Positions 3,664-62,856 of a stretch of 64,000 nt of DNA are shown in pieces; position 1 is the first letter of the stretch; each line of letters opens with the position of its first letter. A program made the position numbers and the translations under genes. The stretch lies in the sequence record MN445185.1; one strand, 5' to 3'. The DNA comes from Escherichia phage vB_EcoM_EC001. The notes below the pieces were generated by a model. That model was not told where the DNA came from and did not search any database. It worked only from the letters and a program-made list of their open reading frames with translations.

Positions 3664-4251
3664 ATGACAGAACGTATTTTACGACTGCAAGAGAACAGGT
3701 TAGAAGACCTGCACGTAATGCGTAGTCGCGGCTTGTTCCCAGTGGGGCTTGATGTAAGTGGGTTAATAACTTCTGCGCAGCACGGGGACAGGGTCATTAC
3801 AATGCATTCGCGTGGGAACGAAGTGGTCTCTGCGATTTTCATCGATAAGGTTATTCCGGACTCGGAAAGTGGTAAGGTAGCGGGACACATCATTTACGAA
3901 TACTTTCGCAGCATTCTATACGAGGAAAAGATAAACGTCAAAACTTTTATGGAGTACGCTAAGCGAAATAACTACATCGATGCGCGACTGATGGTCACGG
4001 AAGGCACCCCAACTATAAACGGTAAAGTCCACCATCGTTTACTTGGGGCGCAGTTGCCGAGACTGGGTGAGTTACCGACGACGATAGAGCTACACCAAAA
4101 AACAGATTGGCGACACAAAATCGAAGTGCTTCACAAGCTTTACGATTTATCGATCGTTCAAATCAAACTGGTGGACTTCACGCCTGCAAATATGCAAATC
4201 GCTAAGCGCGCATTGGGTTTTCGTATTCTTAACACAACGTTCACATTGTAA
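3664..4251 (+). CDS. hypothetical protein (195 aa)
   Basis: Track ORF 3655..4251 begins at GTG; start moved to ATG 3664 with GAGGTG SD. Confidence 0.65.
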   Translation: MTERILRLQENRLEDLHVMRSRGLFPVGLDVSGLITSAQHGDRVITMHSRGNEVVSAIFIDKVIPDSESGKVAGHIIYEYFRSILYEEKINVKTFMEYAKRNNYIDARLMVTEGTPTINGKVHHRLLGAQLPRLGELPTTIELHQKTDWRHKIEVLHKLYDLSIVQIKLVDFTPANMQIAKRALGFRILNTTFTL

Positions 4252-4282
4252 AATATCTCAGATATATATTACTTAGGTGAGA
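4252..4282 (+). promoter_or_regulatory. conserved promoter-like element, TATATTAC class
   Basis: …CTCAGATATATATTACTTAGGTGAG… right after stop of 3664..4251; near-identical copy at 62806; core matches phiKZ early-promoter element as I recall it. Confidence 0.45.
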
Positions 4283-7440: not shown

Positions 7441-7454
7441 GAACGACTAATACT
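7441..7454 (+). promoter_or_regulatory. conserved 5'-leader motif (variant GAACGACTAATACT)
   Basis: Same spacing (~19 nt) to ATG 7474 as other copies. Confidence 0.3.
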
Positions 7455-13085: not shown

Positions 13086-13536
13086 CGCGCCTGAGCGCTT
13101 CAAGGTCGTTACAGTTAACTGTGTTGGTGCAATGGGAAGGGGCATTGCTTTGGCGTGCCGAGAACGCTTCCCATCGCTTTATAATGACTATCGCCAGAAA
13201 TGTCGTAAAGAGCAAATCGTTATCGGTGAGGTCTATTGTTATCCTGAGGAAGGGGTAATACTCCTTCCTACTAAAACCCATTTTCGCTATAAATCGCAGA
13301 TTTACTATGTCACGTCCGGCATTGATGCGCTGGCGCGACTAGGGGAAGACTTAGAAGGAGGGATTGCGATACCGCCCCTAGGGATGGCTAACGGTTGGTT
13401 ACGTTACCATGAGCGATTGGAAATCTTTATACACTTACAGAAACGACTACAGCACACGGAGCAGACTTATCGATTCTATTTACCGGACACATTGCTAAGG
13501 GAAGCAGAGAAAATCATCCCAAAAAGTTTCAAATAG
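13036..13536 (+). CDS. macro-domain protein, TARG1/DarG-like (166 aa)
   Basis: Motifs in order: HDLF…VNCVGAMGRGIALACRERFP, QIYYVTSG, GIAIPPLGMANGW, resembling the TARG1/OARD1/DarG macro subfamily as I recall it. Confidence 0.6.
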   Translation: MSLELIDEAVISHDLFNAPERFKVVTVNCVGAMGRGIALACRERFPSLYNDYRQKCRKEQIVIGEVYCYPEEGVILLPTKTHFRYKSQIYYVTSGIDALARLGEDLEGGIAIPPLGMANGWLRYHERLEIFIHLQKRLQHTEQTYRFYLPDTLLREAEKIIPKSFK

Positions 13537-13635: not shown

Positions 13636-14358
13636 ATGTTTCGCACCATTTTATTTCTTCTGGTAGCAGTGACCACATTCAACAGCAACGCTTCTTACCA
13701 GTCCACCAGTAACAAACATCAAAAAGAATTTGTCCTTATCCAGGACCAGTTCAATGAGATTAAACCTCTCATCGTCTCTGCATCTCGAAAACAAGGCGTA
13801 CATGCCGGGATGCTTGCGACCACCATTTACCGCGAATCCCGTTTTAATAAAAACGTGGGTAAGAATAAATCGAGCAGTGCTAGTAGTGTTGTCCAAATGA
13901 CGACAGGTACTAAACGCTCCATGATACGTCTGTATGGGAAACAACTTAACATCCCAAAGAACGCAGACCTTAATAAACCGAAATATGCTGTACAGCTTGC
14001 TGCTGTTTACATGAAACACATCGAGGATCATCTGACAAAACAACTCAAACGCAAGCCGAGCACAGCCGAAATTGCATTAGGCTACCGCTTCGGTGAGAGC
14101 GCTGCTGTTGCGATGATTAAAAAGAAATCATCGGTCGGGAAACGCTGGATGGACAGCTACCGAAAAGACGCAGCATTCTACGGTGCGAAAATGACGCCAC
14201 CGAAAGCTGAAACACGTCAGCTTGCTTTTGCGAAGGAAGACCGCGACCAACGCGTCGCTGAGCTTCAGAAAATCTGGGATACGCTGTACACCAAAATATC
14301 ACCTGCGGCCGGTACACTACTGGCAAATAACACTATCATGAAAGGAGCATTGCTTTGA
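13636..14358 (+). CDS. secreted protein, possible lysozyme-like/lytic transglycosylase (240 aa)
   Basis: Signal peptide; loose SLT-like segment YRESRFNKNVG…SVVQMTTGT; preceded by a 14-codon upstream ORF. Confidence 0.55.
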   Translation: MFRTILFLLVAVTTFNSNASYQSTSNKHQKEFVLIQDQFNEIKPLIVSASRKQGVHAGMLATTIYRESRFNKNVGKNKSSSASSVVQMTTGTKRSMIRLYGKQLNIPKNADLNKPKYAVQLAAVYMKHIEDHLTKQLKRKPSTAEIALGYRFGESAAVAMIKKKSSVGKRWMDSYRKDAAFYGAKMTPPKAETRQLAFAKEDRDQRVAELQKIWDTLYTKISPAAGTLLANNTIMKGALL

Positions 14359-15326: not shown

Positions 15327-16460
15327 ATGAAATTTCCAATTTCCGTAATCGAAGATATGGCTCGTGTAGTACGTGACCGTGCGTATGTGCTTAGCTACGA
15401 AGGTATTCGTGCATATTCAGAAGCTCTGATTGCACAACACGTCACTGGCACCGGTGTTATCAACCCGGATCTTTACAATGCGCTGGTCGATAACAATGTG
15501 GAGGCTTATCTGCCGCTGCCGCACCTGCGTAATAAGTTGTGCCTTTCTTCTCAAACTCTTCAGTTTGATAACCTGCCACCACTGAAATATTCGCCAGATG
15601 ACCGTTGGGGAAGTATGCTGGGCATGGCTTTCCAAAATTGCCACGCGCCTTATAACTGGTCTATTCTCGTTGAAGGTGTTGATGGTGTCTGGTATGCCAT
15701 TGCACATTCTGACGAATTCTTCTTCGAGCCAGGTGAACTGATTAAACCCGTAAGTGCTCCACATGGTCGTGTTAAGGTTGGGCATTGTTACATTGAATTG
15801 ACTCATGTCCAGTGGACTATCGAAGACTGGCGTGCTGCCTCCGTTATCTTCGGTGACGGTAAACCACACTCAGTTACTTTCGAGCGTTGCGAAGCAGTGC
15901 ATGTTGAAGAGCCTGACAATGACGAAGTGGGAGATCGTTACGCGCCGCTGGAAGAGTGTCGTAACATCGCGAACATCGACTGGGTGAAAGTCTTTACGGC
16001 CAACCCCGGTTTCCGTGGTCAGACTATCAACCCCGGCGAAGTAACCTGGGAAGGTTTCGTACAACTCGCAGATAAACTCGGTTATGACGTGTGGGATTAC
16101 ACCTACAAACGTCCATACCCGAATGCGTCAGAAGATGAAGACCACGATGAAATCATTCTGGAAAACTTGGCTGATATCGAAAATGTGTTTATTGACGACG
16201 AAATCTTTGTTACCCTCGGTATCGAACGTCCAAAATCAACAGCTTATCCGGTATCGGTTGCCAGTGTGATTCAGGAACTGGGCAAAATGCAGGAGCAGAC
16301 TGTCGAAGTGAAAATCGACGAAGAGCAAATGCAGATTGTTGCGCAGGTACAGAAAACTCTGAACCTGGATAAACTGTACGCTGAAATCCGCAAGCTGCCG
16401 AAAAAGAAACGTACTGCTGCCACAATCAAAGCAATGGTCCGCGACATCATCGGCAAATAA
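15327..16460 (+). CDS. hypothetical protein (377 aa)
   Basis: Start moved from track ORF 15303 (TTG) to ATG 15327 (AAGGA SD); acidic C-terminal region; ends at a bidirectional terminator. Confidence 0.7.
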   Translation: MKFPISVIEDMARVVRDRAYVLSYEGIRAYSEALIAQHVTGTGVINPDLYNALVDNNVEAYLPLPHLRNKLCLSSQTLQFDNLPPLKYSPDDRWGSMLGMAFQNCHAPYNWSILVEGVDGVWYAIAHSDEFFFEPGELIKPVSAPHGRVKVGHCYIELTHVQWTIEDWRAASVIFGDGKPHSVTFERCEAVHVEEPDNDEVGDRYAPLEECRNIANIDWVKVFTANPGFRGQTINPGEVTWEGFVQLADKLGYDVWDYTYKRPYPNASEDEDHDEIILENLADIENVFIDDEIFVTLGIERPKSTAYPVSVASVIQELGKMQEQTVEVKIDEEQMQIVAQVQKTLNLDKLYAEIRKLPKKKRTAATIKAMVRDIIGK

Positions 16461-16479
16461 TGCGATAAAAAATAAAAGC

Positions 16480-16516
16480 CTACCTACTCCCTTGGGAGTA
16501 GGTAGTTCTTTTTTTC
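16480..16516. terminator. bidirectional intrinsic terminator between convergent genes
   Basis: 11-bp stem CTACCTACTCC/GGAGTAGGTAG, loop CTTG; T-run downstream and A-run (AAAAAATAAAAG) upstream. Confidence 0.8.
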
Positions 16517-16517
16517 T

Positions 16518-17141
16518 TTAATTTGTTAACCCGTTATCTTTCAGGATTTTCAACATCGCATCATTCAACGCCTGCAGTTCTTGATTCTGCTTAGTGAGTG
16601 TTGCAACTTGTTCTGTCAGAGGAACCTGCTCACGGATTTTGGCTTTACGCACCGCTTCCATTTGCAAGTGTTCTTCTTCCGTCACCGTCCCTTCGTAATC
16701 CATCGATGTGATGTCCACACGTGCATCGATTCCTAAACCGCGTTCTAAGATGCTTTTCAGGTCGTTCGTTAGCAGTGTGACATCGACGTATTCGGGTATT
16801 AATGCCAGGTCAATAACCACCACATTGCGTCTATAATTTAACCCGTTCAGTCCAGGATACGTCTCAATGTACGTATCAGGCAACTCGTAGACTTGACCGT
16901 CCCTCGACTTTAATGTTACAATCGAGGCTTCGACATTAGCGTCGCTGATATAGTCGTCACGAGTTAGGCCGACAGGTTTATAATACTTGTTATAAACGTC
17001 AATATTATTACGTTGGAGTTTCGGAAAGTTCTGTACCGCGTCAACACGGTAAATCACTTTATCTGGCAACGTATAAGGTGCCTTAACCTTGAACAACCCC
17101 TCAAGGTTAACCTGAGGCGTGTTAGGCAACAGTTGTGCCAT
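16518..17141 (-). CDS. hypothetical protein (207 aa)
   Basis: Minus-strand ORF with AAGGAGGG SD directly after the upstream gene's stop; ends at the bidirectional terminator. Confidence 0.65.
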   Translation of the reverse strand: MAQLLPNTPQVNLEGLFKVKAPYTLPDKVIYRVDAVQNFPKLQRNNIDVYNKYYKPVGLTRDDYISDANVEASIVTLKSRDGQVYELPDTYIETYPGLNGLNYRRNVVVIDLALIPEYVDVTLLTNDLKSILERGLGIDARVDITSMDYEGTVTEEEHLQMEAVRKAKIREQVPLTEQVATLTKQNQELQALNDAMLKILKDNGLTN

Positions 17142-17151
17142 TTAACCCTCC

Positions 17152-18531
17152 TTAGGCTTTTGGCTCTGCCGCAGGAACATCCCAAATGGCCTTACGGGCC
17201 AAGACACGATATTCCACGTTATCGAATTCGAAGACGTAGAAGTAAACGTTAGGATCAACGTCGTCTACGAGCTTCACGATATCCAACGGGGTGGAGTGCG
17301 GATGGTACTCTTCGGCTGCAATTAACGCCTGGAAGAACAGATCCAACCACTCGGTGGTTTTCTTCGACATTCTCGCAATATCCGCATTATTAGTGCCGAT
17401 TAATGCGTAGTCAGGAATTGTGTCATGCAGGGTCGTTTTGCGTGAATCGTTTTCAGGGCCAGCGATAACCACGGCGTTCAACGATTTATAGATGGACGGT
17501 AAATCCGTTACATCGGTAGTTGGAATCGAGATCGCTCCACTATTTTTTTCCGTAATGGTTTGAACAGTCCACTCCCCAAATCGGGAGATTGCTTTGACCC
17601 AGAAATCATATGGGAGAATCGGCGAGTATAATGCCGCAACATCTTCCTCATTTGGAATCCCACGAATTGACCAACCGGGAACAATTGTGAACTTGGTGGT
17701 CGTAAAGATTTCTGGGAACACTTTGACACCCAACGCCACAGTAAAACTGGAGTTTGCCAAAATGTAATCACGTAACGCTTGTTTAATCCTGCTCGGGTTA
17801 CGACCCGCGCGTCCGTAGATGATAGCCGACATCGGTATCGGTAAGGTGGAGTCAAAGTCTTCCTGGTCGTGCCAAGTATAGATGTTAGTAATCAGGCTAG
17901 TGTACGGATAACCGTCAGCTAATTCGTTAATCTTATTATGGTGATCCGGAAGGTTGAACCCTTCCATTGCCTTTTCGACTACAGATTTCACAGCCAAGAA
18001 AGTATCAACCGGTAATATCGGCATTTGGACTTCAATTTCAAATCCAGTATAGTCCTGATTGAAATCTTCATCAGCAAACCAGAGAATAATCTGGTTATTT
18101 ACATCAGACGGGTCTTCGACTTTATCTGCTGTGGTTTCAAGTTTCCAACTGACCCAACGTGGGAACCAGTTACTGTTAGTCTGAATCATCGCGCCAGACT
18201 GAACACCGCTGATGACACTATTAAATTGCCCCAACAGCAAACGCTGGAATTCAACTTCGTCGTTTCTTAAGTTGCCCAGGATAGACTGTTGGTAGATCCA
18301 TTGGGAAACAGTAAGAACGTGGTCGCTAAAGACGGCCGGGGTCTTAATAGGCAACTCGTCACGTTTAGAAGTAAAAGCAACCAGTTCCACCTGCAGATTT
18401 TCTTTAGTAAAATACTGCTTGCTTTTAGCGAACGAATATGACAGCTCAGACAACTCACCTACCGGAGCGGTGTTGCCAGGGCCATTATCAATCAGAGCCG
18501 CTATTTGAATAAAGCCTTGTAAATCATACAT
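17152..18531 (-). CDS. hypothetical protein (459 aa)
   Basis: Long minus-strand ORF; GGAGAG SD 9 nt upstream; first gene of a two-gene minus operon. Confidence 0.7.
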   Translation of the reverse strand: MYDLQGFIQIAALIDNGPGNTAPVGELSELSYSFAKSKQYFTKENLQVELVAFTSKRDELPIKTPAVFSDHVLTVSQWIYQQSILGNLRNDEVEFQRLLLGQFNSVISGVQSGAMIQTNSNWFPRWVSWKLETTADKVEDPSDVNNQIILWFADEDFNQDYTGFEIEVQMPILPVDTFLAVKSVVEKAMEGFNLPDHHNKINELADGYPYTSLITNIYTWHDQEDFDSTLPIPMSAIIYGRAGRNPSRIKQALRDYILANSSFTVALGVKVFPEIFTTTKFTIVPGWSIRGIPNEEDVAALYSPILPYDFWVKAISRFGEWTVQTITEKNSGAISIPTTDVTDLPSIYKSLNAVVIAGPENDSRKTTLHDTIPDYALIGTNNADIARMSKKTTEWLDLFFQALIAAEEYHPHSTPLDIVKLVDDVDPNVYFYVFEFDNVEYRVLARKAIWDVPAAEPKA

Positions 18532-18555
18532 AATTAAAAACTCTCCGAGGTGAGC

Positions 18556-19065
18556 ATGATAGCATCAGTTTTCAAACTGCTTCCATTCTTACAGATGCTG
18601 TGGGAAGCATTTAAACCGGGCGAGGGGGAGAAAGTAACACGAGCCGGGAAGATAGTGACACTAGTGATAGTGGCACTGGTCGCGTTCTCTGCATTTGTCT
18701 CATATGCCTATATTGTTCAATACCACACACTGGTTAGCGTCCAATCGCGTACTCAGTATCTGGAGATATCCTATAAGGAGCTAAAAGAGAAGTCCGATCA
18801 TGGCGAAGTGGAGAACAATAAGCTGTACGATCGTCTCTTCACATGCCTGGGTTCTCGATCGCCATATGATGGTACCAAATCTCCAACAGGGACAGGCACT
18901 GGGGCCGCGGTTCCGCCTGAAGAACTCAAGCCGGTAACACCACAGGCACCGTTAAATCCGTCTAGCCCGCCTGCCAAGAAACACCAGGCGGCTTCTCGCC
19001 CAGTGGGGTCGCAGGCGGCAAACGATTTCCGACAGGAGATTATCAAGACGCTTAATAATCCATGA
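18556..19065 (+). CDS. membrane-anchored protein, possible i-spanin-like (170 aa)
   Basis: Start moved to ATG 18556 (GAGGTG SD); one N-proximal TM helix, then charged/coiled segment and Pro-rich C-terminus. Confidence 0.55.
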   Translation: MIASVFKLLPFLQMLWEAFKPGEGEKVTRAGKIVTLVIVALVAFSAFVSYAYIVQYHTLVSVQSRTQYLEISYKELKEKSDHGEVENNKLYDRLFTCLGSRSPYDGTKSPTGTGTGAAVPPEELKPVTPQAPLNPSSPPAKKHQAASRPVGSQAANDFRQEIIKTLNNP

Positions 19066-19074
19066 GGAGCATAC

Positions 19075-19554
19075 ATGAAGTTATTTTTGGTGGCGATACT
19101 GGTGCTATTGTTGACAGGATGCCCTGGGGTCATCCGTCACGTAGACCCAGATTACTCCTCAACCGGAGATTGGCCTTTTCGTCCTTTAGAACACCCACCA
19201 GTATATAACGGTGGGAACAGTCCTGAGGCGAAAAAGCTGGCAGGGAAAATGTTTGTTGCGGATGTGAACGCTTATGCTTATTACGTTTATCTGTACGCTA
19301 AGTCAGTAAACAACTATGCAGAAGCTAAAGGGTGGCACACCCCGATGACCGCACCGCTTTGTGAAGAGTTTATTCGCCCCACTCTTCATGGTATACCCTC
19401 CGGGATATATCTCGACCCTGGTTCTCGTAGCCCTCAAGACATTAGTCGTGATTTGTCACGACAGATTAAGTCTCTCATTCGCAGCTATCGCGAAGACAGA
19501 GAGTCTTTTAATCGTGCCTACGAACGGCACAAAAGTAGTTGCCTTGTGCAATGA
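19075..19554 (+). CDS. putative lipoprotein, possible o-spanin-like (159 aa)
   Basis: Signal peptide with lipobox LLTGC; GAGGAG SD; terminator follows. Confidence 0.6.
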   Translation: MKLFLVAILVLLLTGCPGVIRHVDPDYSSTGDWPFRPLEHPPVYNGGNSPEAKKLAGKMFVADVNAYAYYVYLYAKSVNNYAEAKGWHTPMTAPLCEEFIRPTLHGIPSGIYLDPGSRSPQDISRDLSRQIKSLIRSYREDRESFNRAYERHKSSCLVQ

Positions 19555-19559
19555 AAACT

Positions 19560-19597
19560 CCCTCTTACCTTCGGGTAAGAGGGGATTTCCTTTTTTA
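19560..19597 (+). terminator. intrinsic terminator
   Basis: CCCTCTTACC-ttcg-GGTAAGAGGG then GATTTCCTTTTTTAC. Confidence 0.8.
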
Positions 19598-19642
19598 CGT
19601 TAATAGTCAATAGTGTGATATATAATCTCGTGGAGAGTTGAA

Positions 19643-20362
19643 ATGACCTATCCTAAAATTCTGCCTGTTTTAACGCCCACCGTTGTTGTTGGGACGGACT
19701 TAGAGACCCTGGCTTTACGTCCAGATGCCTACATCTTAACGTTGGCAAACGTGGCATTCGATGTTCCGACAATGAAAATGATCGGTTCATGTTACCACAA
19801 AATCGACCCCAATGATGCAAAAGCAAAAGAAATCTTCTACATCGATCCACAAACGGTCGGTTATTGGGAAGGTAAAGGCGACCCCGAATACGCACCGAGC
19901 GAGAAAGCACGTATTGAAGCGTTTTCTGGGACCACACCACTGCCAGAAGCACTGTGGGCGGCCAAAAAATGGTTGGATGATCTGGGCAACGTGAAAATGG
20001 TTATCACCATGCGCGGTCCCGATTTCGATGCTCCAATTCTGATGAACGCATTTGCACAGTGCGATATCCCGCCGGGCAAGTACCGCAAGTTTTCTATTTT
20101 GGACTCTGACCGGACTGCAGAACGTATTGCATATGCGTTTGGCTTGGAACCTAACTGGCACGCAGAAGCCCACCACTGGACCCGTGGCAAAGAAGCGTAC
20201 GAGCATAACGCTAACTTTGATGCTGCGAAGGAAGCGTATTCTACGGCACGCATCTATCATTTGGCCCTGGTCGCGCGTACGTACGGCTTCGAACGCATGT
20301 TAGAAGCCCACCGCGAAATGTGCACAGGTGAATACATTCCACCGCAGTTGCGAGGAGAATAA
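19643..20362 (+). CDS. DEDDh-family 3'-5' exonuclease (239 aa)
   Basis: Exo I-like VVGTDLET (D-x-E), Exo II-like GPDFDAPILMNAF, Exo III-like HNANFDAAKEAY (H-x4-D). Confidence 0.65.
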   Translation: MTYPKILPVLTPTVVVGTDLETLALRPDAYILTLANVAFDVPTMKMIGSCYHKIDPNDAKAKEIFYIDPQTVGYWEGKGDPEYAPSEKARIEAFSGTTPLPEALWAAKKWLDDLGNVKMVITMRGPDFDAPILMNAFAQCDIPPGKYRKFSILDSDRTAERIAYAFGLEPNWHAEAHHWTRGKEAYEHNANFDAAKEAYSTARIYHLALVARTYGFERMLEAHREMCTGEYIPPQLRGE

Positions 20363-21877: not shown

Positions 21878-22618
21878 ATGTTGCGAGTCGTGAGTGAATC
21901 GCTCACGCTCCACACACAAAGTCTGATTAACTGTGTGGAGCAATACGGATGGATGTCATGGATGGCAACGAACCGTGAGTTCGGTGCTGCGCCCATGGAA
22001 GATTACGACGTGTTGTACAAGTGGGGATTTGAAGCGGCTTGTGATGTTGTGGCAGAGCTGGTTACTGAAACAATTGCGCGTTACAATGCAAGATGTGATG
22101 AACCGATGCCTAAACAAGTCCCGCCGCAAATACCTCCGCTACCGACAATCGATCGTGAGCAGTGTCGAATCTGGACAATGGAAGAGTTGTACGACGAACA
22201 CGTTAGAATGCTGAAACCGAACGAGCTAATAACCGGTGCGTTGAACTGGTTCTTACATCGTTTCTGGACAGAGTTGGTCGATGTGGCGGGTGACGAAGAT
22301 AATTGTTCTCAGGTTATTTGGTACGATCGAGCGATGTTTCATCGCAGTCTTAAAGATCGCAGTCTCTGCAACCTGTATATTGTTGACCCGTGTGAAGACA
22401 TTGTAAGGGTGGCAGAAGGTAACTCTTATTCGGACTTGGTGATGCCTGTGGTAGAAAAACCGATGGGTATTTTCCTGCAGGGAGACGCTTGGGTTTTAAC
22501 GGATGATATCTCGGGCTACCTGCTGGACCCGGATGACATTCACTCGGACGAACCTGACACCATCGAGTATTTTCACTTTACAGAACAGGCAGCACGCTTC
22601 TTGCATCTCTTAAAGTAA
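21878..22618 (+). CDS. hypothetical protein (246 aa)
   Basis: Start moved to ATG 21878 (GAGGTG SD, 1 nt after upstream stop). Confidence 0.6.
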   Translation: MLRVVSESLTLHTQSLINCVEQYGWMSWMATNREFGAAPMEDYDVLYKWGFEAACDVVAELVTETIARYNARCDEPMPKQVPPQIPPLPTIDREQCRIWTMEELYDEHVRMLKPNELITGALNWFLHRFWTELVDVAGDEDNCSQVIWYDRAMFHRSLKDRSLCNLYIVDPCEDIVRVAEGNSYSDLVMPVVEKPMGIFLQGDAWVLTDDISGYLLDPDDIHSDEPDTIEYFHFTEQAARFLHLLK

Positions 22619-22643
22619 TCTGAGATAGATATTATCTACAGGG
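22616..22643 (+). promoter_or_regulatory. conserved promoter-like element (ATATTATC variant)
   Basis: TAATCTGAGATAGATATTATCTACAGGG, ~30 nt upstream of SD of gene 22672. Confidence 0.4.
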
Positions 22644-22671
22644 ACGTAACCTTAAGGAGAATTTATTCACG

Positions 22672-26301: not shown

Positions 26302-26345
26302 CCCACTCCCCTTATGGGAGTGGGTAATGCTTATTTTTTTTTTAT
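26302..26345. terminator. bidirectional intrinsic terminator between convergent genes
   Basis: CCCACTCCC-cttat-GGGAGTGGG; long T-run downstream, A-run upstream; flanks nearly identical to the terminator at 16480. Confidence 0.8.
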
Positions 26346-27097
26346 TTTTTGTTTGCTTTCAGGGTCTTGAGGCGATCACCGGTTACGTTCAGGCATTCTG
26401 TCAGTTCATTAATCTGTTTCATAAACAGTCCGAACAGCTCAACCCAGTCAGCACCCATGTCAGCCATTTTCACTAACTCTGCCGCCACATTAGGATGGAC
26501 TTGTGAATTAGAGATAATGTCTACAGAGACGTTGATGCTTTCAACTGTACGGTCAATACTTTTCTGAAGTTTCTTAGTCACTTCCAGGTTCAGCGCTTTG
26601 GCACGATTAAATGCAACATCGATCTCGCCCGCGCTGTGGTAGGTCTTTTCAATCGGACGCTGGTCAATGACGTTGTTGGTATACGACTTCGCCAGTTTCT
26701 CAACCAGATCTTTTGGATTGATATTTTTCAGCGGGTAGTTCAGGTCTTTGAACTTAAACCCAATCGGCAGAGTTAACATGCCCAGGTCATGGGTCATCGC
26801 ACCGAAACGTTTATCGATGGGTGTTAAAACCCCTTCCTGAATCTTCTGGAGCACAGCCCATACAGATTCCAACCGTTCTATGTGGTCCATCACATACGTG
26901 TTGAAGCCCGGAGGTACGGGTACAAGCATTCCGGTAAAGTTTAAAAACTTCTCTTGCTGCATCCACTTGGACACATCAGACATGTCGTCATAGGTGGTCA
27001 GCGCGAGTTCCTGTTGAGAGCCGCTAAAGGCTTTAGGCAGAATCGTGGATGCTTTGGCAACAAAGCCCGACAACGCTGCAAGTGGATTAACATTCAT
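26342..27097 (-). CDS. hypothetical protein (251 aa)
   Basis: Minus-strand ORF with GAGGT SD; ends at a bidirectional terminator shared with the upstream plus gene. Confidence 0.65.
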   Translation of the reverse strand: MNVNPLAALSGFVAKASTILPKAFSGSQQELALTTYDDMSDVSKWMQQEKFLNFTGMLVPVPPGFNTYVMDHIERLESVWAVLQKIQEGVLTPIDKRFGAMTHDLGMLTLPIGFKFKDLNYPLKNINPKDLVEKLAKSYTNNVIDQRPIEKTYHSAGEIDVAFNRAKALNLEVTKKLQKSIDRTVESINVSVDIISNSQVHPNVAAELVKMADMGADWVELFGLFMKQINELTECLNVTGDRLKTLKANKK

Positions 27098-31183: not shown

Positions 31184-31209
31184 CAACATCTCATAATAGG
31201 ATAACACCT

Positions 31210-44747: not shown

Positions 44748-47700
44748 TTAGCTTGCTTTCCGACTTACGTTTAACGACGGTGTCGGTTGGGTTATTTCCT
44801 GCCTGCGTGCAGCTGAGCCCGGAGGAGCCACATTTGCCGCTTGCTGGATACTACCACCCCGTGTGTCGTTTGCCGCTCTCGGATTTGATTTCAAAATATC
44901 ACGAATCTCTTTCAAGTAATCGCGAGACTGAATCAGTACCTTGAGCTGCTGAACATCTATCGGGTCACCATTCAGCGTTGGCGTCGATGCTGTAGCATCA
45001 GAAGTTGGGGCGGCAACTGGACGAGCTGCTGCGTTAACCTGCGCTTCCGCGCCTGCTTTCACTTTAGCAACATCCGTTGCAGACAATCCTTCTGCTGCAG
45101 CTTGCGACGCTACGGTTTCGGCTGTTGTTGAGGCATCGGATGTTCCGGAACCACCTGTAGTTGGTGTAGGTGCTGCTGGTCCTACATTACCTGCGGCGGT
45201 AGCCATTGCATCTTGTGCCGCCATGGCCCCTTTCTGCGTCAATGCGTCATCACGACGATTAGCATTATCTGCCGGCAGGTTATCTGCTGGCGACAGACTC
45301 GGATCATTAGCGGCCGGTGCACCCATTGCTGCTGCCGGGTTGGTTGGTGAATTAGGCGACAAGCCTGCAACCATATCCTTCGTCTTACTCGGATCGGCAG
45401 CGACTTCGTTGGCAGAAATTGCGCCCATACGGCGGTTCAGTTCCTGAATAACCCCATCCACGCTACGTATACGACCGTTGCTGTAGAAGACGTTGGCATT
45501 CCCTCTCAATATTGCGGATGTAATCCCAGGAGCACTCGATGCCGCCATATTCGGATTACGCTTCCATGCTTCCAGGAATTTCTTACCGCCGCCCGCACCC
45601 AGGAAGTGATACAGATAAGCCACGGCTGGAGGTGGTGCTTTACCACCCAGGTCACGCTGTGCTTGTTGGATGTTGTCACGAATGAACTGTACACCCAATA
45701 TAGCATTCGCCCACGGGTCCATCTGGTTAACACGCGGAATACCGAACTTCCGCGAATACCCCTTCATCATCCCGTCCCACGTACCGTCAATAAACTGGAA
45801 CAACCCAGACGCCGAAGCATACGGGTTTTTAGCGGTGTAGTTAAATCCGGACTCCGCCTTAGCCATTGCTAACGCCACTGCAGGTGGCACGCCCATCATG
45901 TTCGCCGCATCGGTAATCAATGCTTTGATATTCGGAACGTTCAACGCACCCTTTCTACCCAACATTTCTATCGGGTATTTTTCAGCCAGTGACTTATAAT
46001 CACCGTCTTTCACATCACTCAGGTTAATCGAAGACGAACCAGTGGTCATTGCAGCGTAGTTCCGCACACCACCAACCGCATCGACGACTTGACCCAAGTT
46101 ACCCGGCACACCACCACTCGTACCCGATGGAATGTAGCCTGAGGCGCGAGCACCGTCAGATGACAAAGAATCTCCCGAACTGATGTTCGAGTCTTCTTCA
46201 TCTTCATCGGTGACTTCCAGAGAACTGCGGTTCTTGTTACGATCCTTCCAGCGCGCACGCTTGCCATTATTTCTAATGGCTTTAATCATGTTACGCACGG
46301 CAAGGTCAGCTTCTTTTGACAACAGCTTCAGCGTTTCCAGCTCGGCTTTAATAGACGATGGGTTCGTGTTAGCCTCACCCCCTAATGGGTTGATATTCAC
46401 TTCCCACACCGACTGTCTTATACCACCTTTCAAGCTGTAGGCTGTTGACATCATCAAGCTGATTTCGTACAGGTAACCACCAGTCAGCTTCAAGTTCAGC
46501 GGATCGGCTGTTGGCAGGTAACGCTTCACCCCAACCAAATACGTCATGAATACCGGTAAGAAACGGTCAAAGAACCACCGCTTCAAACGATCTTCTTTCG
46601 GTGTACCGATAGCGTCTGGAACCATCGAGGCGATTGCTTTCTTCCAATCTCCTTTGTAGCTTGCGGTTTTCACGTCAATGTCTTTGATGACGTTCTTCTC
46701 GAATACCGTGATCAACGTGCGGGTGGCGTTATCGATGGTGGTAAAGCCGTAAGTCTTCCAACGCACCGATTCCATCGCATTCATGTCTTTCTGGTCGAGC
46801 ACCGCATTCCAGTCTACCTGAATCTGAACCTGCTCTGTTCCGTCTTCCCAACCCTCTACCTTCGCCAGATTTTTATTACGTTCGTTATCCAACTGTCCAA
46901 GTTTGTTGATAGCTTCATCAACGCCCGCGGACTTAATCCCCTCCACGGCCGGTGCCATTCCGTACTTACGTGCTTTCTTATCGTCCATTCTGGACTTGAT
47001 TGCACGCTCGACTTCATTCTGCACTTCCATAACCTCTTCACCGCTCAAGAACTCCTTCGGTGTAAAGGTTACAACGTCCCAAGCTTTCGAGAAGAAACCT
47101 TGGTTGACTTTGCGTGGGTCTGTTAACGAAGAGAACGCTTTTGCATCCTTAGTCATCTTCATTTTGTTGAAGAGAGTCAGCATGTCCTCTTTCGATACTT
47201 TCTTCGCATCGCCGACGTCAGCCAACTGGATACTGTTCGGCATTGACTTCAGTGCCGTAATCCAGCGGAGATAAATCGGAATAAAGCGCTGAAGCATAAA
47301 CGCTTGGAAGGCCAACATCTCGCCTTTTTCCTCAACGTTAATACCGAACCCTTCAGCTAGCTTCTGAACGTCTTTTCCACTTAGCCCGCGGAGACTGGCT
47401 TGGCCATCTTCCGCGTAAGACACATACTCACGCAATGCGTCTTCTAAGTAACGCGCTTTCGCCCCGTCGTCCGACGACCACTTATCGTAATCACGGAAAC
47501 CGTACTGAGCTAAACGCATCTTATCCAGGTACTGGGTATAGGTAGTCGTTGCAATCCTGTACGCGGCGTAACCAGCCGCAGCGATCGCACCACCGATAAG
47601 AATTGCCGGCCAACCCACCGCAGTCACGACGGCAGATGCCGCAGTTGCCACAGCGGACACCGCGGGTGCCGCCAAACGGGTTACTGCGAACTTACCGACA

Positions 47701-50700: not shown

Positions 50701-51869
50701 AAGGTGAACGCGCCTTTCTGCAGGCGTTTCATGACCTCTGGATTTTTCTCCATCTCCTCACGAGTCCATTTCTGGAGTTTCTCGATTTGTGGGCCGAGTA
50801 GTTTCTTCGCAAGGAATCCGCTACCCCACGCAGTTGCTTTATCACGAGCATTTGTTTTGCGACGTTCAGCAGTCAACGAAGAGCTGTCGCTCATGCCGAA
50901 ATCGTCTTCAACACCCATGCCGAGAACAGACTCTAACAAACCACGACCTTCGCCAAATATACCAGAAATCTTCTTCTTGGTATTTTCGCGAATCATGTCC
51001 ATAAACCCGTCAGCATAACGCAACGGGTTCATCCATTCCGCAGCCTGGCGTTTAACGTTCGCCCAACGGACTTCTGAGAAATCTTCCTTCGCGTAATCCG
51101 GCAATGCCGTGTTCTTCACGATGGCTTCTAAAGCAGGCGTATTACGATCGAACTCCGACTGCTTCATCTTCACGATGTCTTGGATGGCAAACAGGGTACG
51201 GTATTGCAGTTCGAGTTTCTTACGCTCGATGTTTAAGAATACCCCACGGCTTAACCCGGTTAGCAGGTTAATGTCTTTCGCCATCCCAATCATGGTTTGG
51301 TGCATTGCATCCGCACGCATCTCTTTGATGCTGTCGCGGAGCTTATCCTCTACCATGCGGTCCTGCAGCTGACGTTGTTCATCGGCATCCTTTGGCACAC
51401 CTGAGAATACGTCGCCCAGTTCACGATCCATCAATGCCTGATTCGGATCGTAGTTCTGGTAATCTAACTGGTCAGATTTTGACCACTTGTCGATGCGCTT
51501 AGTAACTGCATCCGGCAAGTATTTCTTCATCGTCGGACCGAGTTGGCGCGCTTGCATCTTCAGCGTGCGCTCGGTCTTCACAAGCTCCCCTTTCGTATGG
51601 GCGTAAATGTCCTTTGCTGCAGCTGCCGCTGACTGATAGCCCTCGTATGCATCAGCTGCCGGCTTAGGCATCCCCTTGAGGATAACTTGGTCGCGTTTCC
51701 CTTCTGGCCAGATAGTTGACAACGCCGACTTCCTGGCAACATTCAGGGTACTGAGTATCGGGCTTCGTTTTTTCTCGTCTTTGGGACGGGGTGGTTCACC
51801 GAAATCATCCCAGTCGTCGAGTCTATCTAAATCGATATCATCGAAACCGTCTTTGCCTCTTTTTGCCAT
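44748..51869 (-). CDS. giant protein (2373 aa) with lytic-transglycosylase (SLT) domain; candidate virion/ejection protein
   Basis: 7.1-kb ORF; SLT active-site motif …AMAKAESGFNYTAKNPYASASGLFQF… ~375 aa from C-terminus (nt ~45500-45960); Gly/Arg-rich segments; long hydrophobic segment (…AVATAASAVVTAVGWPAILIGGAIAAAGYAAY…); Ala/Pro/Thr-rich C-terminus. Confidence 0.9.
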   Translation of the reverse strand: MAKRGKDGFDDIDLDRLDDWDDFGEPPRPKDEKKRSPILSTLNVARKSALSTIWPEGKRDQVILKGMPKPAADAYEGYQSAAAAAKDIYAHTKGELVKTERTLKMQARQLGPTMKKYLPDAVTKRIDKWSKSDQLDYQNYDPNQALMDRELGDVFSGVPKDADEQRQLQDRMVEDKLRDSIKEMRADAMHQTMIGMAKDINLLTGLSRGVFLNIERKKLELQYRTLFAIQDIVKMKQSEFDRNTPALEAIVKNTALPDYAKEDFSEVRWANVKRQAAEWMNPLRYADGFMDMIRENTKKKISGIFGEGRGLLESVLGMGVEDDFGMSDSSSLTAERRKTNARDKATAWGSGFLAKKLLGPQIEKLQKWTREEMEKNPEVMKRLQKGAFTFGNLSSISNSAIAGETQGPLADLFRVLNELGIVQPLNREKAFLDERNGETLSRSAKFDRKAYLSLVEVIPAWLAEINKSVRRGYGEHADLEYDITSRGFVDRKVVGNRVRKAVANDEQRLRLQNSINSTVDFVDRGKTLSQKDRQHLADYIESRASQGRAFDVEAILKDPMHLHRYMPGNAAERIKEALQGHSDSLVGGSNELSNELARKISTVQSSITQRQAIIDEAVNIYGERALRDAGIFNYDAKSDTFGVDKDLSDPYTLFNDLAMGKTRSGRALTREQEIQRKLQNGSALGDYLRRMNQGVNGGADDTSLPPALRGGGKGRGMSPRQLAAVLYGETSTNFVELLSQRNRGEEAPRNNFDGIIEAIRGNNNSDTLQKILEHVRSMDEEGVLLASLAGGAGSGDEEMGPPRPGGGSGGGKRRRIIIGEDGLIRRWGGVLFDTAAGIGGFAKRGVKGAWNKLNQFGGWARGKVAGMGGGEGPGFLTRMRGLISGSVRGGFEAVSSFGKGLLGIRDVYDDHGNVVLQGARLEAGEYYQVIDGKMVQLKTLDDIKLGSDIVDSAGNLILAAADLAAAGKLRYYKGGKIQALTQGLASKIGLGFNKVAKLPKRFLDFLSPKAGSIVGKIKDWLNEIPEGEEKTRLQKAFNRVTSLPGKVLGFAKRGVDRLKDMITDNPLTRWWKGRKDGGGGGFSLFSSTGKKTNHILIRIYKLLNQRLPGDPEDESWTEEMEKGVGGGGSTIGRAVRGAYDRAKASLSERFGGRWSRTKAFFGRGRDRLRGWFSGFRGRAGDMLDGYRGARHDIATRYEVERRLAGRDDDVAEFYRSHLNAKGGLSGRKVYGDAKEDLETARDAAGRVINKGKNAAKSAGARLFERLDRMIGLQEMSWFNTMRESVSRAGGDDGIIRTMFAKFGKRNKPPEGDEKRDYLNFFKRWREKRKEKKEKAQGSKGKSGGLWDMVKSLPIIGPIVSILGTVGNILGSITKWGVLKPVGLLGKAAWNVGKFAVTRLAAPAVSAVATAASAVVTAVGWPAILIGGAIAAAGYAAYRIATTTYTQYLDKMRLAQYGFRDYDKWSSDDGAKARYLEDALREYVSYAEDGQASLRGLSGKDVQKLAEGFGINVEEKGEMLAFQAFMLQRFIPIYLRWITALKSMPNSIQLADVGDAKKVSKEDMLTLFNKMKMTKDAKAFSSLTDPRKVNQGFFSKAWDVVTFTPKEFLSGEEVMEVQNEVERAIKSRMDDKKARKYGMAPAVEGIKSAGVDEAINKLGQLDNERNKNLAKVEGWEDGTEQVQIQVDWNAVLDQKDMNAMESVRWKTYGFTTIDNATRTLITVFEKNVIKDIDVKTASYKGDWKKAIASMVPDAIGTPKEDRLKRWFFDRFLPVFMTYLVGVKRYLPTADPLNLKLTGGYLYEISLMMSTAYSLKGGIRQSVWEVNINPLGGEANTNPSSIKAELETLKLLSKEADLAVRNMIKAIRNNGKRARWKDRNKNRSSLEVTDEDEEDSNISSGDSLSSDGARASGYIPSGTSGGVPGNLGQVVDAVGGVRNYAAMTTGSSSINLSDVKDGDYKSLAEKYPIEMLGRKGALNVPNIKALITDAANMMGVPPAVALAMAKAESGFNYTAKNPYASASGLFQFIDGTWDGMMKGYSRKFGIPRVNQMDPWANAILGVQFIRDNIQQAQRDLGGKAPPPAVAYLYHFLGAGGGKKFLEAWKRNPNMAASSAPGITSAILRGNANVFYSNGRIRSVDGVIQELNRRMGAISANEVAADPSKTKDMVAGLSPNSPTNPAAAMGAPAANDPSLSPADNLPADNANRRDDALTQKGAMAAQDAMATAAGNVGPAAPTPTTGGSGTSDASTTAETVASQAAAEGLSATDVAKVKAGAEAQVNAAARPVAAPTSDATASTPTLNGDPIDVQQLKVLIQSRDYLKEIRDILKSNPRAANDTRGGSIQQAANVAPPGSAARRQEITQPTPSLNVSRKAS

Positions 51870-51898
51870 AATGTTTCTTCCAATTCAGGAGCTTAAAA

Positions 51899-53512
51899 GT
51901 GAGAAAGCTAAACTGGGTTGACTTTTACTTGTTAAACGTCAACAAGTCCCTGGTGTCGCATTTAAAACCAGTTACAACAACAGACACCTTTCAGGGACTG
52001 ACGAAAAACTTTCACCCTGAAGGACTGTATTCAACCGAAATTTTTGGCCTCACAGGGAGCGAAGCACGAGACTCAACGTTCTCGTACATTGATATCAAAC
52101 TGGATATCATTTCGCCGACCGTTTGTTTGGCATTGTTCCAGCTGAAACAGCTGTACGAAGAAATCTGTTCCGGGAAGCGATTCGCTATCTGGAATGAGAA
52201 AGAAAAAGATTTCGAGCCGGCTCTGCCCAGTGATAAAGGTGCAGACACCGGCTTCAACTTCTTCCTACGCTACTACGAACAACTGACGCCAGGACGCAAC
52301 GAATCAATGCGTCGCGACGAGACAGTCGATTTCTTCAATAAGTTCCGTCCGGTCAGTCTCAGCCGCTATGTGCTGGTTCTACCTGCGGGATTACGTGATT
52401 TGGTCATTCGTCAGGATGGCCGCGACCAAGAAGAAGAGATTGGCGGACTCTACCGCCGTCTGATTTCTCTGGCACGTGCAGTCCCCGACCGCAGTACGCG
52501 AACGGAACTGACTGACCCGGTTCGCTGGAAGCTCCAACAAACCTTTAATGACATCTGGATGTACTTCTTCAACATCCAAGACGGTAAAGGTGGTTTTGCG
52601 CGTCGTAAAGTGACGTCACGTAAGTTAATGAACGGTACGCGTAACGTACTGTCTTCATTCTCAACCGGTTCCAAGGTCATGGGTCGCGAAGATGCGATTC
52701 GTCCAACGGATACCCGTATCGGTTTGTACCAAACCCTGAAGGCGTTACTGCCTGTGGCTCAATACCACATCCGTGAACGTTACCTCAGTAACATCCGGGC
52801 AGGGGATGGCAACTTATACGGCGTTAACACCAAAACACTCAAGCGTGAGTTCCTGGAAGTCTCCGGGCGGGTGTATGACCTTTTCACTACCGACGATGGC
52901 ATCGAAACACTCATCAACAGAATGGAAGCGCGCGAGCTTCGACATAAACCGCTGATGATTGATCCGGACCATTACGTGGCATTAATCTACCAAGACAAAC
53001 GCAGCTTCAAAATCTTTTACGATATTGAAGACCTGCCGGAAGGACGTGACCGTAAGCTTGTCCGCGGACTGAGCTTAGCGGAACTCCTCTATTTGTCAGG
53101 TTACGATATTTGGAATGACTACTTCTCGTTCATCACGCGTTATCCGGTTACGGGACGCGGTTCGACTTACTCCTCGACCATAAGATTGGAGACCACCACT
53201 TCTTCCCTCTATTTGCATGAACTGGAAGACGATTGGGTCACGTTAAAAGAGAAGGGTGCAATTAGCTTCCCTGATCGTACCGTGAAAACCTTTGTGGAAT
53301 CCATGGCACCACATCCATCCCGATTAGGTGGATTGGGTGGTGACTACGATGGTGACACCGGCTCAGCAAACTGCCCGATGTCAACCGAAGCGCTCGAGGA
53401 AAATCGGAAGTGGGTCAGTTCGAAAAACTACTGGTTTGCAACAGACGGCAGTTTCAAAATCAATCCGGTTAACAACGTGATTAAAAGAACGACTGCTGCG
53501 CTGTTGAAATGA
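51899..53512 (+). CDS. RNA polymerase beta-prime-like subunit, N-terminal-half type (537 aa, GTG start)
   Basis: AGGAG SD 7-8 nt before GTG. In canonical order: SYIDIKLDIISP (~GHIELAAPVAH), RRKVTSRKLMNGTRNVL (~LLGKRVDYSGRSVI), TRYPVTGRGS (~NRAPTLHRLG), GDYDGDTGSANCPMSTEAL (~NADFDGDQMAVHVPLSLEA) ~50 aa before the stop. Confidence 0.65.
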   Translation: MRKLNWVDFYLLNVNKSLVSHLKPVTTTDTFQGLTKNFHPEGLYSTEIFGLTGSEARDSTFSYIDIKLDIISPTVCLALFQLKQLYEEICSGKRFAIWNEKEKDFEPALPSDKGADTGFNFFLRYYEQLTPGRNESMRRDETVDFFNKFRPVSLSRYVLVLPAGLRDLVIRQDGRDQEEEIGGLYRRLISLARAVPDRSTRTELTDPVRWKLQQTFNDIWMYFFNIQDGKGGFARRKVTSRKLMNGTRNVLSSFSTGSKVMGREDAIRPTDTRIGLYQTLKALLPVAQYHIRERYLSNIRAGDGNLYGVNTKTLKREFLEVSGRVYDLFTTDDGIETLINRMEARELRHKPLMIDPDHYVALIYQDKRSFKIFYDIEDLPEGRDRKLVRGLSLAELLYLSGYDIWNDYFSFITRYPVTGRGSTYSSTIRLETTTSSLYLHELEDDWVTLKEKGAISFPDRTVKTFVESMAPHPSRLGGLGGDYDGDTGSANCPMSTEALEENRKWVSSKNYWFATDGSFKINPVNNVIKRTTAALLK

Positions 53513-62796: not shown

Positions 62797-62805
62797 AATT
62801 GCATT

Positions 62806-62839
62806 CAAAAAGAACTGAGATATATATTACTTAGGTGAG
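62806..62839 (+). promoter_or_regulatory. conserved promoter-like element, TATATTAC class
   Basis: CAAAAAGAACTGAGATATATATTACTTAGGTGAG, downstream of a terminator and ~50 nt upstream of gene 62890. Confidence 0.45.
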
Positions 62840-62856
62840 CGTTACACGTTAACGCT

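Follow-up and report, generated by a model that had tools for sequence, protein, structure and literature searches.

Candidate TATG late promoters facing each other across a compact divergent junction in an SPN3US-like jumbo phage

The gene unit and its products

Divergent gene units separated by very short spacers raise the question of where their promoters lie. The case considered here is a minus-strand pair of genes, gp203 and gp202, and the junction at which it begins, in Escherichia phage vB_EcoM_EC001 (sequence record MN445185.1); the window is the whole stretch of 64,000 nucleotides (nt) that was analysed, and positions refer to it unless another genome is named. An earlier note on this DNA had described a minus-strand two-gene operon in a plus-strand context, and both open reading frames (ORFs) are indeed present, among neighbours that are almost all on the plus strand. 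By sequence comparison, identity over the 2.3 kb around the junction is 99.5% with Salmonella phage JN03 and 97.5% with SPN3US; these two phages belong to Seoulvirus, within the phiKZ-related jumbo phage group, and the window is SPN3US-like. Orthologues of the two genes are annotated in these close relatives (SPN3US_0203 and SPN3US_0202; JN03 QNI20891 and QNI20890). The genome encodes, according to the annotations, split beta/beta'-like RNA polymerase subunits, and the nearest upstream minus-strand gene is found about 8 kb away (26342-27097). It seems likely that gp203 and gp202 form a late unit of baseplate genes in a jumbo phage that is SPN3US-like and related to phiKZ. Its elements are the following.

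17152..18531, minus strand: gp203 orthologue, first gene of the unit (ORF of 459 amino acids, ATG start)
16518..17141, minus strand: gp202 orthologue, second gene of the unit (ORF of 207 amino acids, ATG start; DUF7194)
17142..17154, minus strand: gp203 stop codon (17152-17154), 10-nt gap and Shine-Dalgarno sequence (SD) of gp202 (17147-17152), read from the sequence
16480..16505, both strands: predicted bidirectional intrinsic terminator between the convergent genes gp201 (plus) and gp202 (minus), at the 3' end of the unit

The product of gp203 is 99.6% identical to the JN03 protein and 99% identical to SPN3US gp203, a protein established as essential and tail-associated by amber mutation combined with particle proteomics (PMC5105663). 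The essentiality of this protein and its presence in particles already exclude a lack of minus-strand transcripts over the unit, the outcome that would have spoken against the earlier note. Homology to the phiKZ gp157-like outer-baseplate brace proteins extends over the full length, both with PHROG 3293, 'virion structural protein' (E 7.6e-176; residues 1-451 against profile positions 1-433 of 436), and with chain J of PDB 9xqd, PHIKZ157 (E 1.2e-48; residues 1-449 against chain residues 1-441), and at least 80% of gp203 is covered in 285 phage records. The cryo-electron microscopy atlas of phiKZ shows 18 dimers of gp157 arranged as a ring, which is a brace of the outer baseplate (PMC13250141). 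Judged by sequence homology, gp203 is the orthologue of this brace-ring protein.

The second gene product, gp202, scores 239.8 bits against Pfam PF23824 (DUF7194), for which the gathering cut-off is 27, over residues 6-205 of 207. It is also homologous to two solved chains, PHIKZ161 in PDB 9xqs (E 6e-20) and 'Inner Baseplate Protein gp187' in PDB 11lx (E 8e-28), which places it with DUF7194, the phiKZ gp161 'horn' and Goslar gp187. The phiKZ protein is the inner-baseplate 'horn' (PMC13250141), and Goslar gp187 is described as a lower-wedge protein of the inner baseplate (Goslar preprint); on the same kind of evidence as for gp203, gp202 is the orthologue of this horn. Two PDB chains of 207 and 208 residues, 36za_ps and 11lx_n, match gp202 equally well (E 8e-28) under different labels, 'Vertex binding complex protein gp66' and 'Inner Baseplate Protein gp187'. 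The Goslar preprint gives phiKZ gp85, at the capsid vertex, as the homologue of gp66 and assigns gp187 to the baseplate lower wedge; one of the two labels may be a naming error in a composite model. Both genes and their products are thus already known, and their phiKZ and Goslar homologues have solved structures.

The second gene follows the stop codon of the first by exactly 10 nt (17142-17151), as had been noted. On the minus strand the boundary reads ...GCC TAA GGAGGGTTAA ATG, in which the gp202 SD, AGGAGG, overlaps the gp203 stop codon with one base in common (TAAGGAGG); the gap measures 8-10 nt in five relatives from four genera. This overlap of SD and stop codon suggests translational coupling. 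The only strong minus-strand terminator of the unit is predicted at 16505-16480, with none between gp203 and gp202. It comprises an 11-bp GC-rich stem with T-runs on both strands; the folding energy as minus-strand RNA is -23.2 kcal/mol (z = -5.3), with UUUUAUUUUUU after the hairpin. A common strand, a short gap, an SD laid over the stop codon and a single bidirectional 3' terminator together support the predicted operon. GC-rich hairpins flanked by A-runs and T-runs are likewise found between convergent genes of phiKZ-like phages, where bidirectional terminators have been mapped at 6 places in phiKZ and 15 in 201phi2-1 (PMC10914365, PMC11512511); the sequence at 16480-16505 is, however, unlike the phiKZ terminator consensus, and its terminator function here is a prediction.

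The head-to-head spacer

The start codon of gp203 lies close to that of a plus-strand gene, gp204, which opens a divergent unit of two genes.

18532..18555, between the strands: head-to-head spacer of gp203 and gp204 (24 nt, two abutting SDs)
18556..19584, plus strand: divergent partner unit gp204-gp205 (ORFs and terminator)
18556-19065, plus strand: gp204 (ORF; N-terminal transmembrane segment)
19075-19554, plus strand: gp205 (ORF; lipoprotein)
19559-19584, both strands: second bidirectional terminator, at the end of gp204-gp205 (hairpin scan)

The earlier note had placed the two start codons some 24 nt apart, with good SDs that nearly abut. The spacer between the gp203 ATG at 18531 and the plus-strand ATG at 18556 is exactly 24 nt long, and the two SDs directly touch: that of gp203 is GGAGAG on the minus strand (CTCTCC on the plus strand, 18541-18546) and that of gp204 is GAGGTGA on the plus strand (18547-18553). 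Read on the plus strand, the spacer and its flanking start codons are CAT-aattaaaaa-CTCTCC-GAGGTGA-gc-ATG.

The start of gp204 at 18556 is the one annotated in JN03, SPAsTU, Asesino and Phobos, and residues 3-13 of the resulting protein are conserved across ten diverged homologues, for which reasons it is taken as the real start. The GenBank and RefSeq records of SPN3US instead begin gp204 at a later ATG that has no SD (window 18595, leaving a 63-nt gap; 180017 in the SPN3US record, as against 179978 for the upstream ATG). From this comparison the start given in the SPN3US records appears to be an annotation error. The GTG at 18550 is in frame with the ATG at 18556, but in locus L017 and similar loci a 1-nt indel shifts the two into different frames, and this GTG was rejected as a start.

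The spacer measures 22-25 nt across 17 distinct loci from four genera. Within it, a 14-nt block, TGCTCACCTCGGAG (18556-18543 on the minus strand), is invariant while the surrounding sequence is 45-73% identical to the window. In an alignment of 1.3 kb, made of the 1,150 nt upstream of gp203 and the first 150 nt of gp203, no other run with at least 90% identity in each column among 10 representatives is as long as this block. It is accounted for by the gp204 start codon, the 7-nt SD GAGGTGA and the GGAG of the gp203 SD.

Such compactness recurs in the SPN3US genome: among its 17 divergent junctions are five whose spacers measure 11, 14, 24, 25 and 29 nt. Each of these contains little beyond two back-to-back SDs, and one is a perfect palindrome, AACTCCGGAGTT.

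Promoter types sought around the junction

Three classes of promoter were sought around the junction before the TATG of the late class was considered. An early-type motif, AGATAKATATTAYYTAGGTGAG, emerged from over-represented 10-12-mers and has 14 exact copies in SPN3US, mostly intergenic and all 14 on the plus strand. Its fuller form is AAA..T..AGATAKATATTAYYTAGGTGAG; a position-weight-matrix scan of the window gave plus-strand copies at 4247-4282, 22610-22645 and 62805-62840, weaker plus-strand copies at 722, 13518 and 31148 and one weak minus-strand match at 31192. AT-rich early promoters of a similar kind have been described for every jumbo phage that encodes RNA polymerases (PMC7598289), and the motif is presumably read by the virion RNA polymerase. 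The same scan found no match on either strand in 16000-20000, nor near the junction at 51869/51899; the nearest copies to the gp203/gp204 junction are those at 13518 and 22610.

A middle-type bipartite motif, (A/T-rich)TTTAC-N15-TATG, has 32 matches in SPN3US when scanned as TTAC-N14-16-TATG. Half of them (16 of 32) are located in the intergenic 6% of the genome, 24-100 nt upstream of genes, and copies in the window have the G of TATG at 7441, 11673, 27167 and 35859 (plus strand), among others. The motif resembles the phiKZ middle promoter, with its AT-rich element near -24. None of its matches would serve gp203 or gp204, the nearest being at 12758 on the plus strand and one loose minus-strand match at 21041.

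A host-type promoter for the unit was also rejected: sigma-70-like sites are as frequent as in shuffled sequence (13 consensus-like sites in 9 kb, against 12.7 +/- 4.1 in shuffles), although a site at 18505-18534 that matches at 9 of 12 positions overlaps the gp203 start. Rfam gave no match in 16000-20000 at E <= 1.

Conserved TATG sites inside gp203 and gp204

The late promoter of phiKZ is reduced to four bases, T(-3)ATG(+1), all of which the non-virion RNA polymerase requires in vitro (PMC7598289). The earlier note had concluded that the promoters of these units must lie inside neighbouring coding sequence or far upstream. 'Must' is too strong, because a phiKZ-type late promoter needs only TATG and could fit into 24 nt. 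The tetranucleotide is absent from the spacer, and comparison among relatives favours the first part of the conclusion, with conserved TATGs embedded in the neighbouring genes. A search of the flanking coding regions for short late-promoter motifs, as the note had envisaged, found junction-facing conserved TATGs in both gp203 and gp204, each within a CATATG.

18863..18868, minus strand: CATATG in gp204, codons P103-Y104-D105 (TATG at 18866-18863, G at 18863)
17607..17612, plus strand: CATATG in gp203, codons P307-Y308-D309, in LPYDF (TATG at 17609-17612, G at 17612)

At both sites the third base of the proline codon makes the junction-facing TATG, antisense to the host gene, and the third base of the tyrosine codon makes a TATG on the sense strand. 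The minus-strand TATG in gp204 is situated 332 nt upstream of the gp203 ATG. Among ten representative homologues, Pro103 is encoded by CCA in all 10 and Tyr104 by TAT in all 10, whereas other conserved residues use varied codons, the other gp204 prolines being CCA, CCT or CCG and the other tyrosines TAT and TAC about equally. These codons yield CCATATGA at 18862-18869, an 8-nt run conserved in at least 9 of the 10 representatives, and TATG is kept on both strands in 9 of 9 relatives. Over the 1.1 kb upstream of gp203 in Asesino, the gp203 strand carries no TATG other than the -332 site.

The plus-strand TATG in gp203, 944 nt upstream of the gp204 ATG, shows a similar pattern. The CCA codon of P307 is one of only three invariant codons in 148 columns with an invariant, degenerate residue; TATG is retained on the plus strand in 9 of 9 relatives and on the minus strand in 8 of 9. 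In Phobos, this gp203-internal site is the only TATG on the plus strand (the gp204 strand) in the 1.1 kb concerned. When the 33 TATGs on both strands of the 7.4 kb around the junction are compared, only the four at these two sites are kept in 8 or 9 of 9 relatives, the next best reaching 6 of 9. A terminator scan found no minus-strand terminator-like site from 18863 to the gp203 start, so a transcript begun at 18863 should reach gp203.

Other TATGs near the junction were rejected as promoters. Those overlapping the start codons of gp203 and of a giant gene at the second compact junction described below (AATTATG, ACATTATG) were set aside because a transcript beginning at the G would lack the start codon and have its next AUG in another frame, and because phage Caitlin is without the motif. 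The minus-strand TATG at 18701, 170 nt upstream of gp203, is kept within Seoulvirus only, other genera having TAGG or TACG, and the plus-strand TATGAC at 18440, 116 nt upstream of gp204, is conserved in one of nine relatives. As a separate observation, three of the 20 CATATG hexamers of the SPN3US genome fall within 1.3 kb (SPN3US 179029, 180123 and 180285, corresponding to window 17607, 18701 and 18863); two of these three are conserved outside Seoulvirus, and a fourth CATATG is found 1.3 kb further on, in gp206.

TATG as a signal under selection

Reviews of jumbo-phage transcription have pointed out that a 4-nt TATG late promoter alone cannot explain specificity (PMC7598289). The distribution of the motif over the genome was considered in this light. 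In the gaps upstream of genes, TATGA occurs 23 times against 4.8 expected. In coding sequence, depletion was assessed by shuffling synonymous codons, with every protein and its codon usage left unchanged, the ratios being taken from a separate run of 40 shuffles.

TATG, sense strand: 628 observed, 956 ± 20 in shuffles, ratio about 0.65
CATA (TATG antisense): 215 observed, 391 ± 14 in shuffles, ratio about 0.56

Among the 256 tetranucleotides, CATA is the third and TATG the sixth most depleted, in the company of GATC, AATT, GAGG and TTTT. The lookalikes of TATG are not depleted (TATA 0.85, TATT 0.97, TATC 1.34, AATG 0.99, CATG 0.92). The copies that remain tend to be retained: when three aligned regions are pooled (about 21 kb; 5-9 diverged relatives for each), full conservation is seen at 17% of TATG sites, against 2.6% for all tetranucleotides, which places TATG at rank 1 of 255. 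A possible extension, WTCNTATG(G), fits 8 of 11 conserved sites, and the four junction-facing sites of the window read TATGG; it is at present a candidate motif.

The other compact junctions

The earlier note had recognized the same design at 51869/51899, and a 29-nt spacer with two back-to-back SDs (CTTCC ... AGGAG) is indeed found there. This second junction was checked after the first.

51870..51898, between the strands: second compact spacer (29 nt; alignment of the spacer in 13 representatives)
44748-51869, minus strand: giant gene for a fibre-like protein of 2373 amino acids, flanking the 29-nt spacer
51899-53512, plus strand: virion RNA polymerase subunit gene, flanking the 29-nt spacer
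51596..51599, plus strand: junction-facing TATG in the giant gene (antisense), 300 nt upstream of the RNA polymerase gene start
53179..53182, minus strand: junction-facing TATG in the RNA polymerase gene (antisense; CATA on the plus strand), 1310 nt upstream of the giant-gene ATG

The TATG at 51596-51599 is conserved in 12 of 12 relatives, with GTATG invariant and the histidine codon fixed as CAT in 13 of 13 sequences. That at 53182-53179 is likewise conserved in 12 of 12; other TATGs around this junction are kept in 0-7 of 12. The latter site belongs to a block of about 23 nt, within GTGGTCTCCAATCTTATGGTCGAG on the minus strand (53160-53200), which is conserved at synonymous positions in 13 diverged phages. 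In this block CCAATCTTATGGTCGA is invariant, two flanking positions vary, and the rare codons ATA and AGA are fixed in 13 of 13. By its conservation, the block is under selection for more than a 4-nt initiator. The TATG of a phiKZ-type late promoter is thus found at four junction-facing positions of the window: 18866-18863 (minus), 17609-17612 (plus), 51596-51599 (plus) and 53182-53179 (minus). In SPN3US, the G of these four TATGs is at approximately 180285, 179034, 212057 and 213637, respectively.

The pattern was then predicted ahead for the three remaining compact junctions of SPN3US, with the following conserved, junction-facing sites (SPN3US positions).

50881/50907: plus-strand TATG at 50623 and 50339 (7 of 7 relatives); minus-strand TATG at 51271 (7 of 7)
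69553/69568: plus-strand TATG at 69464 and 69043 (14 of 14); minus-strand TATG at 69609 (14 of 14)
80715/80727: plus-strand TATG at 79910 (2 of 2); minus-strand TATG at 80979 (2 of 2)

All five compact junctions (spacers of at most 29 nt) therefore have a fully conserved junction-facing TATG on every side. The chance of at least one such site was estimated from each host gene's own rate of fully conserved tetranucleotides and ranges from 0.02 to 0.23 per side, with a product of 4.5e-10 over eight sides and of about 3.5e-4 for the four scorable sides of the two junctions checked last; this estimate is rough, ignores shared ancestry and is indicative only. In addition, the small gene that precedes the major head protein gene contains two sense-strand TATGs (SPN3US 69775 and 69832, plus strand) that 14 of 14 relatives share; at distances of 330 and 273 nt from the start of the head gene, they are candidate internal promoters for it.

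Comparison with phiKZ and with the excludon

The phiKZ block running from gp157 to gp161 contains the orthologous baseplate proteins, and there too the brace gene diverges from a block, which leads to an exonuclease and RNase H. Several differences are apparent. In phiKZ, the three genes gp158-160 lie between gp157 and gp161, and head genes come after, whereas here the two genes are adjacent and end at a terminator. The divergent phiKZ junction gp156.1|gp157 (gp156.1-gp155, RNase H) spans 178 nt against 24 nt here. The phiKZ spacer holds a TATG 17 nt upstream of gp157 and, on the other strand, a TATGG about 31 nt upstream of gp156.1, which fits TATG-driven transcription of both neighbours. The phiKZ motifs are therefore back to back inside the spacer, while the conserved TATGs of the SPN3US-like phages are face to face inside the opposite genes, and their 24-nt spacer has no TATG upstream of a start codon. 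As the alignments read, the spacer of the SPN3US-like lineages is collapsed to two ribosome-binding sites.

As for the promoter itself, TATG here shares with the phiKZ late promoter an enrichment upstream of genes and a depletion within them, and it is the most conserved tetranucleotide; the candidate sites of the window differ in that they occur within a gene, on its antisense strand, and at a distance of hundreds of nucleotides from their presumed target gene. Their geometry recalls the excludon of Listeria, in which the long 5' untranslated region of one of two divergent genes overlaps the other in antisense (PMC3377988). If the embedded TATGs are start sites, each leader would be antisense to the opposite first gene and its ribosome-binding site. 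Differences are that the present case concerns a phage with a phage RNA polymerase, that the overlap would be reciprocal and at five junctions, and that the geometry is predicted from sequence.

Proposed mechanism and rival explanations

Neither the compact divergent junction nor the TATG late promoter is a new kind of feature. Taken together, the data make it probable that embedded, face-to-face TATG promoters serve both units at each junction. According to this account, the non-virion RNA polymerase of the phage would initiate at minimal TATG initiators, as in phiKZ, and these would be situated inside the neighbouring genes and point at the junction, at 18866-18863 (minus) in gp204 and at 17609-17612 (plus) in gp203. 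Transcription of gp203-gp202 would begin at 18863 and give a leader of 332 nt, antisense to the 5' third of gp204; that of gp204-gp205, or of an antisense RNA, would begin at 17612. The two units would then be transcribed face to face, with leaders that are mutually complementary across both ribosome-binding sites, in the manner of an excludon, and the same layout would hold at all five compact junctions, 51869/51899 included. Placement on the minus strand, together with bidirectional terminators, may further insulate the late baseplate genes from early transcription on the plus strand, given that every early-promoter copy found is on that strand.

Several observations weigh against this account. 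The coding DNA still contains 843 copies of TATG, and the motif alone cannot define a promoter; its use by the SPN3US polymerase is something that we infer from phiKZ and from the statistics above. With 944 and 1310 nt, two of the leaders are long for promoters dedicated to an mRNA. At three of the four sites in the window, the evidence beyond amino-acid constraint comes down to one or two synonymous positions, and both sites at the gp203/gp204 junction encode P-Y-D/E, so a protein-level or codon-pair constraint is conceivable. The relatives compared share ancestry, whence counts such as 10 of 10 overstate the number of independent observations, and the junction at SPN3US 80715/80727 has low power with two independent relatives only. 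A weak terminator-like hairpin, a 6-bp stem followed by ATTGCCTTTT, is found at 17948-17965 on the plus strand, antisense inside gp203 and between 17612 and gp204; it could be an attenuator of that transcript or a chance match. Finally, the literature searched yielded no transcription start site, RNA sequencing or timing data for SPN3US-like phages.

Part of this evidence could be read differently. Transcripts might start in the 24-nt spacer or at its edge, from a non-TATG promoter of which TGCTCACCTCGGAG would be a part, with leaders of about 10-20 nt, the embedded TATGs serving another purpose. The position of TGCTCACCTCGGAG as the longest conserved block of the 1.3-kb alignment around the gp203 start would suit such a promoter; so would the TATG only 17 nt from the ATG of phiKZ gp157, and a sizeable share of the mapped starts in phiKZ and 201phi2-1 fit no motif (32 in phiKZ; PMC10914365, PMC11512511). 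The block is, however, explained by the gp204 start codon and the two SDs, the other compact spacers (11, 14, 25 and 29 nt) have only their paired SDs in common, and the synonymous-site invariance of the embedded TATGs at five junctions would be left unexplained, which makes a start in the spacer unlikely. Equally left without explanation would be the conserved TATGs if there were no local promoters and both units were reached by read-through, gp204-gp205 from the early-type promoter near 13518, through 16480-16505 and antisense across gp202-gp203, and gp203-gp202 from far upstream on the minus strand. The early-type motif at 13518, the leakiness of phiKZ-like terminators in many units (PMC10914365) and the lack of a canonical motif near the junction speak for this possibility. 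It nevertheless has to contend with strong bidirectional terminators on both flanks, at 16480-16505 (-23.2 kcal/mol) and 19559-19584, with the distance of about 8 kb to the next upstream minus-strand gene, and with the fact that early transcription would produce antisense RNA of an essential baseplate gene and not its mRNA; we regard read-through as very improbable.

The conserved CATATG and TATG sites might also be nucleotide signals other than mRNA promoters for the opposite unit, such as promoters of short antisense RNAs, binding or cleavage sites of a phage protein, or the trace of a constraint on a P-Y-D/E peptide or codon pair. Both sites at the gp203/gp204 junction are 6-bp palindromes encoding the same tripeptide, three of the 20 genomic CATATGs are clustered within 1.3 kb, the element at 53179 extends beyond a bare TATG to a conserved block of about 23 nt, and antisense RNAs with defined start sites are known in phiKZ (PMC10914365). 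Yet the sites at other junctions are non-palindromic and encode other residues (His-Thr; Thr-Ile-Arg) while still containing a TATG that faces the junction, both the genome-wide depletion and the conservation concern TATG and not just CATATG, and no minus-strand terminator-like site separates 18863 from the gp203 start. A role of this sort accordingly has a small share of the probability, and promoters for the opposite units remain the preferred reading of the embedded TATGs.

Implications

More broadly, compact head-to-head junctions could be a conserved regulatory device in which opposed TATG initiators, colliding units and antisense leaders couple modules or make them mutually exclusive, with the purge of TATG from coding sequence providing specificity. 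This generalization is tentative, and on balance we doubt it. If it is true, the modules paired would be the baseplate and a putative spanin pair, the tail fibre and the virion RNA polymerase, and the helicase and head genes, and the purge of TATG on both coding strands would be part of the specificity of a 4-nt promoter. The purge and the conservation of the remaining copies offer a sequence-level handle on late-promoter specificity. The layout also makes exact, falsifiable predictions of start sites at five junctions, in a phage with working amber-mutant genetics. Antisense overlap between structural modules and lysis or polymerase modules would, if real, have consequences for annotation, for models of late control in the phage nucleus and for engineering, where synonymous recoding could remove essential promoters. 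To our knowledge, there is no published account of a conserved face-to-face embedded TATG layout at the five compact junctions, of genome-wide TATG depletion or of the unusual conservation of retained copies, although no search was aimed at these points. What is new here is the predicted regulatory layout and not the genes; it is a moderately interesting, testable prediction and not a new kind of system.

The partner unit and other genomic observations

No named function was found for gp204 or gp205 in Pfam or PHROGs. The N-terminal transmembrane segment of gp204 is followed by helical and Pro-rich regions. Features of gp205 are a signal peptide, whose lipobox (LLTGC) is present in 9 of 10 homologues, and a conserved Cys at the C-terminus. 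By these sequence features, the two proteins look like a putative i-spanin/o-spanin pair. A transglycosylase gene (13636-14358) is found 4 kb upstream of the pair.

A last observation concerns the composition of the SPN3US genome (240 kb), from which six 6-bp palindromes are wholly absent (AGTACT, CCCGGG, GAGCTC, GCATGC, GGATCC and GGCGCC), 14-30 copies of each being expected. GATC is the most depleted tetranucleotide in coding sequence (0.46 of expectation), and AATT stands at 0.56. Together with the missing palindromes, this depletion looks like restriction-site avoidance.

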